A stretch of DNA of 59,388 nt, taken from positions 1 through 59,388 of the forward strand of contig JAFGJV010000050.1 of NCBI GenBank assembly GCA_016928955.1, given 5' to 3'. This DNA is from Spirochaetales bacterium. GTDB lineage: Bacteria; Spirochaetota; Spirochaetia; Treponematales; UBA12059. A program made the position numbers and the translations under genes. The notes below the pieces were generated by a model. It was not told where the DNA came from. It did not search any database and saw only the letters and a list, made by a program, of their open reading frames with translations. This document shows positions 27,784-33,289 of the stretch, in pieces (positions within the stretch are counted from its first letter, which is position 1; each line of letters starts with the position of its first letter).

Positions 27784-28353
27784 ATGAGCGAACTTGGCAC
27801 AGCCGCCTTGAGCGGCAAGGCATCGGTCACAGGGGCGTCGGCACGCCCCATATCGGACGACCTCAGAAAACAGGTGGCGGCAAGCGCGGCCGCCTACCGG
27901 GACAAGCCGGGAGCCCTCCTGTCCGTCCTGGAGGAAACCCAGCGCCTTGATCCCAACCGCCACCTGAGCGAGGACGCGCTCAGGGCCATTGCCGAGGCCA
28001 TGGACGAGCCCCTGTCCAGGGTGTACTCGGTAGCCACCTTCTACTCGTACTACAGCCTGGTTCCCCAGGGCCAGCACGTGATCGTGGTATGCAGGGGAAC
28101 GGCCTGCCATACGCGCGGCTCCCTTGGCTTGCTACAGGAGACCCTGGCCATGCTCGGCGCAGAGGATTTCCGCGAGGACGAGGAAGCGTCGTTCACAACG
28201 GCCGACCGCAAATTCACCGTGCGCACCGTGGCGTGCTTCGGGCAGTGCGCCCTGGCCCCCGTCGTGTCCCTGGACGGTGTGATCCTGTCCCGCCTCACGC
28301 CTTCCAAGCTGAAAGCGGCCATAGAACGCGTGGCTAGGGGAGGCAAACGATGA
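27784..28353 (+). CDS. hydC: [FeFe]-hydrogenase HydC/NuoE-like 2Fe-2S subunit
   Basis: VATFYS, CRGTAC and CFGQCALAP; RBS GAGGAG; ATGA overlap with the next gene. Confidence 0.9.
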   Translation: MSELGTAALSGKASVTGASARPISDDLRKQVAASAAAYRDKPGALLSVLEETQRLDPNRHLSEDALRAIAEAMDEPLSRVYSVATFYSYYSLVPQGQHVIVVCRGTACHTRGSLGLLQETLAMLGAEDFREDEEASFTTADRKFTVRTVACFGQCALAPVVSLDGVILSRLTPSKLKAAIERVARGGKR

Positions 28354-31516: not shown

Positions 31517-33289
31517 ATGAATGATTCCAATGTTACTCTGGTAGAACTGAGCGTAGACGGCGTACCCGTTACGGTAGCCTCTGGCTCGACCATACTCAAG
31601 GCTTGCCAGGCCGCCGGCGTGAGCATACCCACCCTGTGCCATCTTGAAGGCGTAAGCTCGAACGCGTCGTGCGGCGTGTGCGTGGTGGAAGTGGAGGGGG
31701 CACGCAGCCTGGTGCGTTCCTGCGTGCAAACCGTATCGCCCGGCATGCAGGTACGCACGAACACCAAGCGCGTTCTGGAAGCGCGCCGCACCGTGGTCGA
31801 ACTGCTCCTTGCCAACCACCCAGACGACTGCCTGGCATGCATGCGCAACGGCAGCTGCGAACTCCAGTCCATGGCCGAGCGCATGGGTGTGCGCCGCAAG
31901 GCTTTCCCGCGCACCCGCAAGGAACCCGCCCAGGACAGCGCCGGGCTCGCCATCATCCGGGACAACGACAAATGCATACTGTGCGGCCGCTGCGTGGCCG
32001 TATGCCGTGAAACCCAGACCGTGTCGGCCATAGACTTTGCCGGCCGCGGCATACGAACCCGCGTGGCTCCGTTCATGGACAAGGCCTTGTCGTCGACCGT
32101 ATGCGTGTCCTGCGGCCAGTGTACCCTGGTGTGCCCCACCGGCGCCCTAACCGAGCGCGACGAAACCGACGAGGTCTTTGCCGACCTGTTCGATCCGGAC
32201 AAGGTCGTGGTGGTGCAGACAGCCCCCGCCATCAGGGCGTCGCTCGGCGAGGCTCTCGGCCTGCCTCCCGGGAGCCTGGTCACCGGCAAGATGGCCGCGG
32301 CTCTTAGGCGGCTGGGCTTTGCCAAGGTGTTCGACACCCAGTTTGCCGCAGATCTTACCATCATGGAGGAGGGCTCAGAGCTGCTCCACCGCGCATCGTC
32401 GGGCGGCGTTCTTCCCATGATCACGTCCTGCTCGCCCGGCTGGATATCCTTCATCGAGACCTTCTACCCCAGCCTCCTGCCCCACCTGTCCACCTGCAAG
32501 TCCCCCCAGCAGATGTTCGGCTCGGTGGCCAAGACCTACTGGGCTCGCAAGGCAGGCGTGGACCCCTCAAAGATGGTAGTCGTGTCCATCATGCCCTGTA
32601 CCGCCAAGAAATTCGAAGCCCGCCGGCCGGAAATGCGCGACGCCTGGGCGTGGTGGAAGGACCAAGGCCAGGATCACAAACCTTTCTTTGACGTGGATTA
32701 CGCGCTGACCACGCGTGAGCTGGCCCGGATGATACGACGGGCAGGCATAGACTTCACGCGCCTGCCGGAAGAAGGCTTTGACGACCCCCTGGGAGCGAGC
32801 ACGGGCGCTGCTGTTATCTTTGGCGCCACGGGCGGCGTAATGGAGGCGGCGGCGCGCACAGCCTACGAACTTGCCACGGGCAAGCCCCTTCCAACGCTGG
32901 AGCTTGAGGCCGTGCGCGGCTTTGAGGGAGTTAGGGAGGCCGCCCTAGACATAGATGGCAAACCCTTGCGCGTAGCCGTTGCGCATACGCTGAAAAACGC
33001 GCGCGCCATCCTGGACGGGATAGCCGCGGGTACCAGCCCCTACGCGTTTGTGGAGGTCATGACCTGCCCTGGCGGCTGCCTTGGCGGCGGAGGCCAGCCC
33101 GTAGCGCCTGACTGGGAGAAACGGGAACTAAGGCGCGCGGCCATTTACCGCGAGGACCGCGGCTTGACCGAGCGCAAGTCCCACGACAACCCGGCCATCA
33201 AGGAACTGTACGCGGTTTTCCTGGGCAAACCCTTAGGGCACCTGTCCCACGAACTTCTCCACACGGAGTACGCTGTCAGAAAGGTTTAA
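31517..33289 (+). CDS. hydA: [FeFe]-hydrogenase catalytic subunit, group A
   Basis: 2Fe-2S domain, HPDDCLACMRNGSC, two 4Fe-4S motifs, H-cluster TSCSPGW, MPCTAKKFE, EVMTCPGGCLGGGGQP; RBS GGAGG. Confidence 0.95.
   Translation: MNDSNVTLVELSVDGVPVTVASGSTILKACQAAGVSIPTLCHLEGVSSNASCGVCVVEVEGARSLVRSCVQTVSPGMQVRTNTKRVLEARRTVVELLLANHPDDCLACMRNGSCELQSMAERMGVRRKAFPRTRKEPAQDSAGLAIIRDNDKCILCGRCVAVCRETQTVSAIDFAGRGIRTRVAPFMDKALSSTVCVSCGQCTLVCPTGALTERDETDEVFADLFDPDKVVVVQTAPAIRASLGEALGLPPGSLVTGKMAAALRRLGFAKVFDTQFAADLTIMEEGSELLHRASSGGVLPMITSCSPGWISFIETFYPSLLPHLSTCKSPQQMFGSVAKTYWARKAGVDPSKMVVVSIMPCTAKKFEARRPEMRDAWAWWKDQGQDHKPFFDVDYALTTRELARMIRRAGIDFTRLPEEGFDDPLGASTGAAVIFGATGGVMEAAARTAYELATGKPLPTLELEAVRGFEGVREAALDIDGKPLRVAVAHTLKNARAILDGIAAGTSPYAFVEVMTCPGGCLGGGGQPVAPDWEKRELRRAAIYREDRGLTERKSHDNPAIKELYAVFLGKPLGHLSHELLHTEYAVRKV

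Follow-up and report, generated by a model that had tools for sequence, protein, structure and literature searches.

The Bfu family is defined by a BfuB subunit with FMN, SLBB, B1 and a 2x[4Fe-4S] (IPR017896) domain that holds B3/B4 (Schut et al. 2022, PMC9304861). In the literature examined, the characterised Bfu enzymes use ferredoxin as the low-potential partner. Ferredoxin docks 12.8 Å from B3/B4, and loss of B4 abolishes most ferredoxin reduction. In NfnABC of T. sibiricus, C1 is unable to reduce ferredoxin directly. StnABC and NfnABC (Nfn-Bfu; 8oh5 of S. ovata, 9n5u of T. sibiricus, 9bov of C. saccharolyticus) carry an FAD/NADP(H) module in the A subunit, where it takes mid-potential input, has a Lys ligand and works beside ferredoxin as the low-potential partner. 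The FAD of the Stn module is non-bifurcating. The large subunit of NfnSL (5jca_L, 4ylf_B) has the same FAD/NADP(H) fold and two [4Fe-4S] clusters, with an N-terminal RCLxC segment, a Glu ligand and a requirement for NfnS.

Related modules are also described for hydrogenases. The available text of PMC5037454 gives group A2 of the HydDB classification as "glutamate synthase-linked (putative)" [FeFe]-hydrogenases, in which HydA has a GltD-type partner and neither a NuoF/FMN domain nor an adjacent HydC is present. According to the part of Greening et al. (2024, PMC11216029) that was available, HydB of the archaeal group F hybrid hydrogenase was modelled with a glutamate synthase domain. This domain lies at the low-potential exit, as in the enzyme described here, but it belongs to an [FeFe]-[NiFe] complex with ferredoxin as the suggested acceptor. 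The closest system is sub-type I BfuABC, a group A3 [FeFe]-hydrogenase that was described from genomes, with Spirochaetota named, by Zheng and Huang (2024, PMC11406978). The main text of that paper, where available, writes NAD(P), never NADP, and proposes the FAD as a second bifurcation centre.

By its domains and motifs, the enzyme analysed here is a group A3 (Bfu-type) [FeFe]-hydrogenase in which an FAD/NADP(H)-type module occupies the position of the ferredoxin domain. The architecture is widespread and, as the available text of PMC11406978 makes clear, already published from genomes. That text and the present HydB agree in a DPD_II domain and a C-terminal FAD/NAD(P) domain replacing B3/B4, in a Ser in the P1 motif, and in the absence of BfuD, which its Spirochaetota homologues also lack. 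No architectural difference was found against the parts available. The original prediction knew of no biochemical work on the architecture, and no characterisation of the fusion was found in the main texts of openly searchable papers. PMC6288185, PMC6046458, PMC6052044 and PMC6085437, in the text available, contain no description of it. What is added here is a candidate for purification, a predicted His ligand, and a genome without recognised Nfn, Stn or Pnt, rather than a new discovery.

The hydC-hydB-hydA operon

The window is the whole stretch of DNA that was analysed, 59,388 nucleotides in length. Its hydC-hydB-hydA operon (27784-33289) consists of three intact ORFs on the + strand, an intact BfuABC cluster with the DPD_II and FAD/NAD(P) domains of sub-type I. 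hydC (27784..28353, +) encodes a NuoE-like BfuC of 189 aa (PF01257, E 1e-35). The hydB fusion (28350..31502, +), a sub-type I BfuB, is an uninterrupted ORF of 1050 aa, and its AlphaFold2 model has a mean pLDDT of 87.8 and a pTM of 0.82. hydA (BfuA; 31517..33289, +) encodes 590 aa counted from its ATG. Upstream of this ATG there is a GTG, at 31493.

An assembly artefact had been set beforehand as a refutation of the original prediction. It is rejected by full-length homologues, single-ORF loci and junction-spanning contigs of other runs. The best 120 of 8000 scored homologues align over 97-100% of the query, with identities of 61-78%, and the fusion is carried by 65 of 150 genomes of the order, in line with the expectation that similar fusions probably exist in databases. 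HydB core and FAD module lie within a single ORF at all 80 genome loci. The junction near 30045 is spanned by contigs from three of four other runs (X13, X15, X7); for run X2, a spanning contig is absent among the pieces listed. Two of the 80 loci (L041 and L064) show breaks further downstream. Gene order is equally stable: hydC lies upstream of the fusion in 71 of the 72 loci with room, and HydA with all three H-cluster motifs lies downstream in 60/60 loci that leave 2 kb or more for it. At nearly all 80 loci, the three hyd genes alone were matched by the queries used.

The genome contains a rex gene; with as many as 3 mismatches allowed, the window has no match to the Rex consensus, against 0.70 expected. 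The promoter and terminator scan stayed within chance, and Rfam gave no match upstream of the operon. The stretch was found as contigs in two metatranscriptome runs of one study; since the flanking DNA had similar depth, these contigs are no proof of transcription.

HydA and HydC resemble their counterparts in HydABC (FeFe-Bfu; 7p5h of T. maritima, 7q4v of A. woodii, 8a6t of T. kivui) and NiFe-HydABCSL (7t2r), with which they were compared. By motif, HydA holds a [2Fe-2S] cluster, a His/Cys3 [4Fe-4S] cluster, 2x[4Fe-4S] and the H-cluster, the last recognised from TSCSPGW, MPCTAKKFE and EVMTCPGGCLGGGGQ. A HydA with H-cluster motifs beside a NuoF-containing partner is what the HydDB rule assigns to group A3; the NuoF domain of HydB sets the enzyme apart from group A2. 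HydC has C103, C108, C151 and C155 for the C1 [2Fe-2S] gating cluster, and this four-Cys motif is present in 74/74 HydC ORFs found at the loci. A complex prediction of the module (570-1043) with HydA (6-528) scored 0.00 with unfolded controls and bears on none of the electron routes discussed below.

The HydB core

Pfam finds Complex1_51K (189-360), NADH_4Fe-4S (471-555), Fer4_20 (562-650) and Pyr_redox_2 (671-960) in HydB, and no Fer4-type domain in its 1050 aa. The C-terminal 2x[4Fe-4S] ferredoxin domain is thus missing, as the first look at the sequence had claimed, and the strict BfuBC core is incomplete without this B3/B4 domain. Every core motif quoted at that stage was found in the protein: ADEGDPGAYM (225-234), TKVF (381-384), GGPSG (427-431), CMVD (468-471) and CGKCAPC (485-491). 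The hinge motif RHILEKRCDAGVC lies at residues 554-566. HydB shares the FMN/NAD core, the signatures and the zinc hinge with HydABC; it differs from HydABC in lacking B3/B4 and in having a three-Cys B5 site and an added FAD module for which two clusters are predicted.

Conservation was counted among 121 close homologues, which are kin at ≥60% identity, so that invariance does not stand for 121 independent events. [quoted passage not shown] This pattern matches the 3Cys+Glu Zn site described, in the text available, for NfnB of C. saccharolyticus, and B5 is therefore predicted to be a mononuclear Zn site rather than [2Fe-2S]. CxG[TS]xC occurs in 0/121 of the fusion N-termini. A three-Cys B5 is also found in the B subunits of T. 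sibiricus and C. saccharolyticus.

The FMN/NAD(H) domain with the SLBB loop (28914..29642, +) contains D226, A232-x-M234, F312, E317 and GGPSG at 427-431. Each is kept in 121/121 close homologues, in keeping with the proposal of bifurcation-type signatures; A-x-M, F and GGPSG are given as signatures of bifurcating beta subunits in the available text of PMC7311640 and PMC12018979. With BfuC, they make up the B1-FMN-C1 site of the Bfu family. D226, A232, M234, F312 and E317 align with D195, A201, M203, F281 and E286 of T. sibiricus, where E286 confers NADH selectivity, and GGPSG aligns as well. The non-bifurcating NADH-dependent type of S. wolfei and S. aciditrophicus has T/S at 232, K/S/A at 234, Tyr for Phe and no GGPSG; with A232, M234, F312 and GGPSG, this HydB is not of that type. 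Several distant NuoF-GltD fusions (P0129, P0132, P0143, P0157, P0190, P0198) have lost GGPSG. The B1 [4Fe-4S] bundle and the zinc hinge (29751..30047, +; PF10589) have the ligands C485, C488, C491 and C531, and C468, H555, C561 and C566, respectively. All are present in 121/121 close homologues except C488 (120/121).

The FAD/NADP(H) module

The module begins with a DPD_II/Fer4_20 domain (30069..30299, +) with two predicted clusters. The predicted ligands of the distal cluster are C574, C625 and the terminal C1036 and C1039; those of the FAD-proximal cluster are C578, C617, C621 and H640. The last Zn ligand is 7 residues from the first module Cys in 121/121 fusions, and the same spacing in canonical HydB is 11-12 residues in the 41 pattern-matching proteins among 150 representatives. 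The FAD and NADP(H) Rossmann domains follow (30360..31229, +; PF07992), with GAGPAG (676-681), YGIPAYRLP including R716, GGGNVA (806-811), YRR (829-831) and GD. A terminal RCLRC (1035-1039; 31452..31466, +) closes the distal cluster. This is the circular permutation of StnC; the corresponding segment of NfnL is N-terminal.

The module had been called GltD/NfnL-like. A complete module is indeed present, but the NfnL comparison does not hold: it scores 317-354 bits against StnC/NfnA and 263-282 bits against NfnL, its permutation is closer to StnC/NfnA, and the Glu of NfnL is absent. In a quick tree of 51 rows (SH-aLRT, midpoint root, rows of ≤300 aa left out), the His clade fell outside the NfnL clade, with SH-aLRT of 99 and 100. 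In its sequence, the module is permuted as StnC, yet groups with neither StnC nor NfnL. StnABC/NfnABC gives the best module match and shares YRR and the flavin arginine. The present enzyme differs from Stn in carrying the module at the low-potential exit, as part of the B subunit, and in having H-cluster motifs in HydA and His rather than Lys, and is thus outside StnABC/Nfn-Bfu. The fold search returned no solved chain covering both HydB halves, and the highest TM-score, taken over the query length, was 0.50.

His640 (30267..30269, +) aligns with the residue that, in related modules, binds the FAD-proximal cluster without being a cysteine. In alignments to 8oh5_C, 9n5u_A, 9bov_A and 5jca_L, this position is Lys in StnC/NfnA and Glu in NfnL. 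Here it is His in 121/121 close homologues and in 71/71 locus ORFs of >900 aa. From this alignment, we infer that His640 is a ligand of the FAD-proximal cluster. The predicted ligand is described here for this HydB; it goes unmentioned in the available text of PMC11406978.

Y829, R830, R831 and R716 are invariant in 121/121 close homologues. The StnC-like and NfnL-like rows that use NADP(H) also have YRR, and in other GltD-like rows its place is taken by CLE or HRE; this bears out the NADP(H)-type motif of the original prediction. The same residues bear on the partner of the module. GltD-type modules recur in many enzymes, and the His ligand, together with the invariant H618, H620 and Q636, is unlike the StnC and NfnL rows. 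On these grounds, the module could deliver electrons to sulfur compounds or to an enzyme encoded elsewhere, or it could favour NAD(H) and turn over little NADP(H). Invariant YRR and the presence of only the three hyd genes at nearly all loci with the queries used make this improbable.

The host genome

The genome (99.5% complete) encodes HydE, HydF and HydG maturases, each above its curated cut-off, as well as Rnf and Zwf, an NADPH source. It also encodes a second, canonical HydABC, whose HydB on contig C52 has an ordinary CxxCxxCxxxCP pair at the position where the module of the fusion begins. No match to NfnL/Stn, NfnS or PntB turned up here; a gap in the assembly is possible. All 34 other genomes of the family have a PF10418 match (NfnS or PyrK), an adjacent NfnSL-like pair occurs in at least 6 fusion carriers, and NfnL adjoins the hyd operon at loci L053 and L056. 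Nfn-type genes in other carriers rule out replacement of Nfn by the fusion as a general rule; such replacement concerns at most this one genome.

Proposed electron routes through the complex

Since most ferredoxin reduction depends on B4 and C1 of T. sibiricus NfnABC is no direct ferredoxin donor, the known ferredoxin exit is gone. A coupled, ferredoxin-free reaction, 2 H2 + NAD+ + NADP+ <-> NADH + NADPH + 2 H+, in which the FAD is a simple port for NADP(H), is the reading we favour, with doubt and confidence in balance; it agrees with the coupling of H2, NAD(H) and NADP(H) that the original prediction put forward. It is favoured because the gating signatures (121/121) and the four-Cys HydC are kept in the operon. 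Electrons from H2 would pass through the HydA wire to the B1-FMN-C1 site. Two would leave as hydride to NAD+, and the swinging C1 cluster of HydC would carry the other two to the distal cluster of the module, at the former place of B3/B4. From there, they would pass to the His-ligated cluster, the FAD and NADP+. The FAD would be a Stn-like two-electron port without a role in bifurcation. The module, at 480 residues, may be too large for the HydC swing known with the small ferredoxin domain.

With potentials of -280 mV for NAD and -370 to -380 mV for NADP, the calculated H2 equilibrium of coupled NADH and NADPH is 98-145 Pa, or roughly 100-150 Pa. The corresponding values are ~3 Pa for NADH alone, 3-7 kPa for NADPH alone and 15 kPa for NADH with ferredoxin. 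Beside H2 consumers, the enzyme of a fermenter would mostly run from NADH + NADPH to 2 H2, and NADPH would be made at higher H2.

Tight coupling is not assured, because the gap between NAD and NADP is ~90-100 mV and Stn of S. ovata has uncoupled NADPH:NAD+ activity. This Stn activity is also consistent with an uncoupled enzyme with two outlets, in which the module is supplied by B1 or a HydA cluster in the mid-potential wire, NAD+ and NADP+ are reduced independently, and downhill NADPH:NAD+ transhydrogenation occurs too. The module of Stn/NfnABC feeds A7-A6-A3-A2-A1-B1, with StnC drawing on A3. At locus L084, with a group A2-type partner, the B1 bundle, hinge and module occur without an FMN domain or adjacent HydC, and this sequence suggests a possible route into the module without C1. 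Against such an arrangement, the gating signatures and HydC are all retained, the 7-residue tether fixes the distal cluster at the hinge, the starting point of the low-potential branch, and a short circuit would presumably bleed NADPH into NADH. We regard it as unlikely.

The coupled reading also has to be weighed against an enzyme with four substrates. In it, ferredoxin would react, as in NfnL, at the distal cluster, or the FAD would act as a second canonical bifurcation centre, as proposed in the available text of PMC11406978. R716 matches the flavin arginine found in NfnL and StnC, NfnL reduces ferredoxin through two equivalent clusters, and Rnf is encoded in the genome. However, the arginine is also present in the non-bifurcating StnC, so it does not discriminate; a hydrogen bond from R716 to FAD N5, as in NfnSL, would depend on geometry. 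The low potential of the cluster in NfnL is tied to Glu, which is replaced by His here, the His clade is separate from that of NfnL, and an NfnS-type high-potential partner was not found in the genome. A four-substrate enzyme is, on balance, quite doubtful. Judged from the alignment, the absence of the NfnL glutamate ligand favours a plain NADP(H) port over a second bifurcating flavin.

Significance for hydrogen metabolism

A ferredoxin-free electron-bifurcating enzyme with NADP(H) as the low-potential partner, reached through a His-ligated [4Fe-4S] cluster unlike that of the solved members of the module family, is conceivable, though we lean slightly against it. As a natural variant with an NADP(H) port, the complex would test gating across the gap of ~90-100 mV. 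Both products absorb at 340 nm and ferredoxin is unneeded, so coupling is simple to assay. Operons of this kind are now counted as ordinary A3 in genomes from digesters and sediments, and the reading of H2 production there would change. If the coupled reaction is true, NADH would be disposed of as H2 at ~30-50x the H2 pressure of NADH-only hydrogenases, with NADPH as the cost, and the enzyme would be the sole recognisable link between NADH and NADPH in this genome.

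Architecture and integrity of the fusion

The genome that holds the window (contig C8; 2.87 Mb, 99.48% complete, 0.35% contamination) encodes hydC (27784-28353), the hydB fusion (28350-31502, 1050 aa) and hydA (31517-33289), three ORFs that overlap or adjoin on the plus strand. All HydB motifs quoted in the original prediction are present in the sequence. Pfam places a Nuo51 FMN domain at HydB residues 189-360, the B1 cluster domain at 471-555, Fer4_20 at 562-650 and Pyr_redox_2 at 671-960; the scan of the 1050-aa protein found no ferredoxin-type domain. The second HydB of the genome (contig C52) closes with the usual two-cluster ferredoxin domain at the equivalent position and serves as an internal control. 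The AlphaFold2 model of the fusion has a pLDDT of 87.8 and a pTM of 0.82. Sequence and fold searches matched solved chains to each half, and found no solved structure covering both.

That the fusion is a genuine protein and not an assembly artefact is upheld by full-length homologues, by a single ORF for HydB core and module in 80 of 80 related loci, and by contigs from three of four other sequencing runs that bridge the junction. A single extra base at window position 29074 in one contig of run X2 is a strain frameshift or a contig error. The best 120 of 8000 scored homologues are all full-length, with 61-78% identity, and spirochaetes are the nearest named relatives among the matches listed. 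A species-genome scan gave at least 577 related stretches, of which 80 were retained; these belong to Spirochaetota, Bacteroidota, Ignavibacteria, Verrucomicrobiota and other groups. Where the locus leaves room, hydC lies upstream (71/72) and a HydA with an H-cluster downstream (60/60). The fusion ORF is broken near the C-terminus in two loci (L041 and L064). A match (E below 1e-120; 55-80% identity) occurs in 65 of the 150 genomes sampled from the order: 27/34 in the same family, and 33/38, 3/38, 0/38 and 2/2 in the others.

Two families of palindrome-rich, REP- or MITE-like intergenic repeats flank the operon (27290-27401 and 27407-27546, with a short copy at 33287-33330). At 72-95% identity, the genome has about 42 copies of one family, spread over 25 contigs, and 20 of the other, over 15 contigs. 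Coverage of the repeats in other runs is very deep; Rfam and the related loci gave no match. Further upstream (17284-25466, minus strand) lies what we take, from its motifs, to be an ordinary pair: an alpha-2-macroglobulin-like gene (1905 aa) and, after it, a PBP1c-like gene.

The FMN/NAD(H) core

A232, M234, F312, E317, D226 and GGPSG are present in 121/121 sequences (the query and its listed homologues), and align with A201, M203, F281, E286, D195 and GGPSG of T. sibiricus NfnB, in which E286 is described as selecting NADH over NADPH. The core carries the features published as criteria for bifurcating beta subunits, as given in PMC7311640. The same set shows no variation at the zinc-hinge ligands C468, H555, C561 and C566. 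At the B5 site, the residues are C31, C60, C64 and E67, and the first Cys is missing in 121/121. The same arrangement is reported for C. saccharolyticus NfnB, as a 3Cys+Glu zinc site. A cluster at B5 is not needed for bifurcation, according to PMC12018979.

The NADP(H) module and its histidine

The module starts 7 residues past the last hinge Cys in 121/121 fusions, whereas the ferredoxin domain of canonical HydB starts 11-12 residues past the hinge (41 pattern-matching HydB among 150 representatives). Aligned with the A subunits of the three solved Nfn-Bfu/Stn enzymes, it reaches 354, 352 and 317 bits, compared with 263-282 bits for NfnL-type chains; it is permuted as in StnC, with a terminal RCLxC. 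By counting along the alignments, R716 corresponds to S. ovata R239. His640 falls at the position of K170 in S. ovata, K165 in T. sibiricus and the glutamate in NfnL, residues described as supplying a fourth ligand to the FAD-proximal cluster. The identity of this ligand matters in the relatives, because exchange of the Lys for A, C or E is reported to cost most bifurcating activity.

His occupies this column in 121/121 sequences and in 71/71 loci ORFs over 900 aa. In a wider set of 35 rows (P0117 and 34 distant representatives that include fragments), the column holds K 17, H 10, E 5 and other residues 3 times. A quick tree groups 15 His-type rows in a single clade (SH-aLRT 99), separate from NfnL-like (100) and StnC-like (94) rows; exceptions are the His row P0248, placed elsewhere, and P0247, which joins at 85. 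The available part of PMC11406978 does not mention a His at this column.

Lys stands there in two HydB-GltD fusions of the same order, L081:4364-7465 (minus), inside a hydC-B-A operon, and L089:2614-5685 (plus), which follows hydC and a hydD-like gene and precedes a second hydC-B-A-like set. L082, L085 and L088 are Stn-like C-B-A operons with a short A subunit (686-749 aa) that lacks the Fdh-like C-terminal domain. L083, L086, L090 and L091 form a clade of 870-920-aa proteins whose GltD-type module has CLE/SLE in place of YRR, which suggests NAD(H) use.

Genomic context

HydE, HydF and HydG all score over their profile cut-offs, and RnfC, glucose-6-phosphate dehydrogenase, Rex and a canonical HydABC are also encoded. 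Two distant H-cluster-domain matches (C54:35029-35763 and C5:37801-38568; ~25% identity) probably represent [FeFe]-hydrogenases of group B or C. Besides the fusion, the genome has one other GltD-type module, on contig C6, in a protein that is presumably YgfK-like, to judge from its gene neighbourhood.

No NfnS/PyrK, NfnL, Stn or PntB match was found in this genome, where an assembly gap is possible; it is the only one of 35 family genomes without a PF10418 (NfnS/PyrK) match. We rejected the fusion as a general replacement of Nfn, since the other 34 all have that match and at least six fusion carriers hold an adjacent NfnSL-like pair. NfnL adjoins the hyd operon in L053 and L056.

Retained ferredoxin use, or an FAD that is a second bifurcating centre, has been suggested in print, but the ligand column lacks the Glu and no partner of the NfnS kind was found in the genome, and we regard it as unlikely.

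Proposed mechanism

In the solved Bfu enzymes, as described in PMC12018979, C1, the HydC-type cluster, moves away from FMN towards B3/B4; ferredoxin docks 12.8 Å from B3/B4, and its direct reduction by C1 is not possible. The fusion keeps the gate and the signatures, and its ferredoxin exit is taken by the module, with a predicted two-cluster wire leading to FAD and an NADP(H) site of the YRR type. Electrons would pass along this wire from the former B3/B4 exit to FAD and on to NADP(H), with the FAD acting as a non-bifurcating port, as reported for Stn (PMC10482914). The simplest reading, to which we give an even chance, is that the enzyme would catalyze 2 H2 + NAD+ + NADP+ <-> NADH + NADPH + 2 H+. 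Slightly short of even, we consider that it may be a ferredoxin-free electron-bifurcating enzyme using NADP(H) as the low-potential partner via a His-ligated cluster.

Alternatively, NAD+ and NADP+ could be served independently by an uncoupled enzyme with two outlets. The wiring of Stn speaks for this, as does the group A2-type partner at L084:4298-6130 (minus; HydA at 2514-4301), which has the B1 bundle, zinc hinge and GltD module, and neither an FMN domain nor an adjoining HydC; we put it at roughly one chance in five. That partner resembles the fusion minus its FMN domain, and may be related to it by evolution. It is improbable that the module serves another partner or cofactor.

For the coupled reaction, equilibrium H2 pressures calculated from literature redox potentials are 98-145 Pa; NADH alone would give ~3 Pa, NADPH alone 3-7 kPa, and NADH together with ferredoxin 15 kPa. 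The metagenomes in which this stretch occurs come from sludge, wastewater, digester and sediment. Because H2 is usually low in such settings, H2 evolution from NADH and NADPH would be the likelier direction.

Relation to known enzymes

Zheng and Huang (2024, PMC11406978) describe a sub-type I BfuB in which DPD_II and an FAD/NAD(P) domain stand in place of B3/B4; they mention homologues from Spirochaetota that lack BfuD and call for further studies. Greening et al. (2024, PMC11216029) modelled a glutamate synthase domain in the HydB of an archaeal hybrid hydrogenase. The fusion differs from the strict BfuBC core of the Bfu family (Schut et al. 2022, PMC9304861), because B3/B4 are missing. The hydrogenase would work like a Bfu core with a Stn-like port, yet it does not belong to Stn, NfnSL or group A2. 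A search of open-access main texts found no biochemical study of the HydB-module architecture. Judged from its sequence, the operon is real and well formed, one locus among hundreds of this published sub-type. The coupled H2/NAD/NADP reaction, if shown, would be new, and it would be easy to assay.
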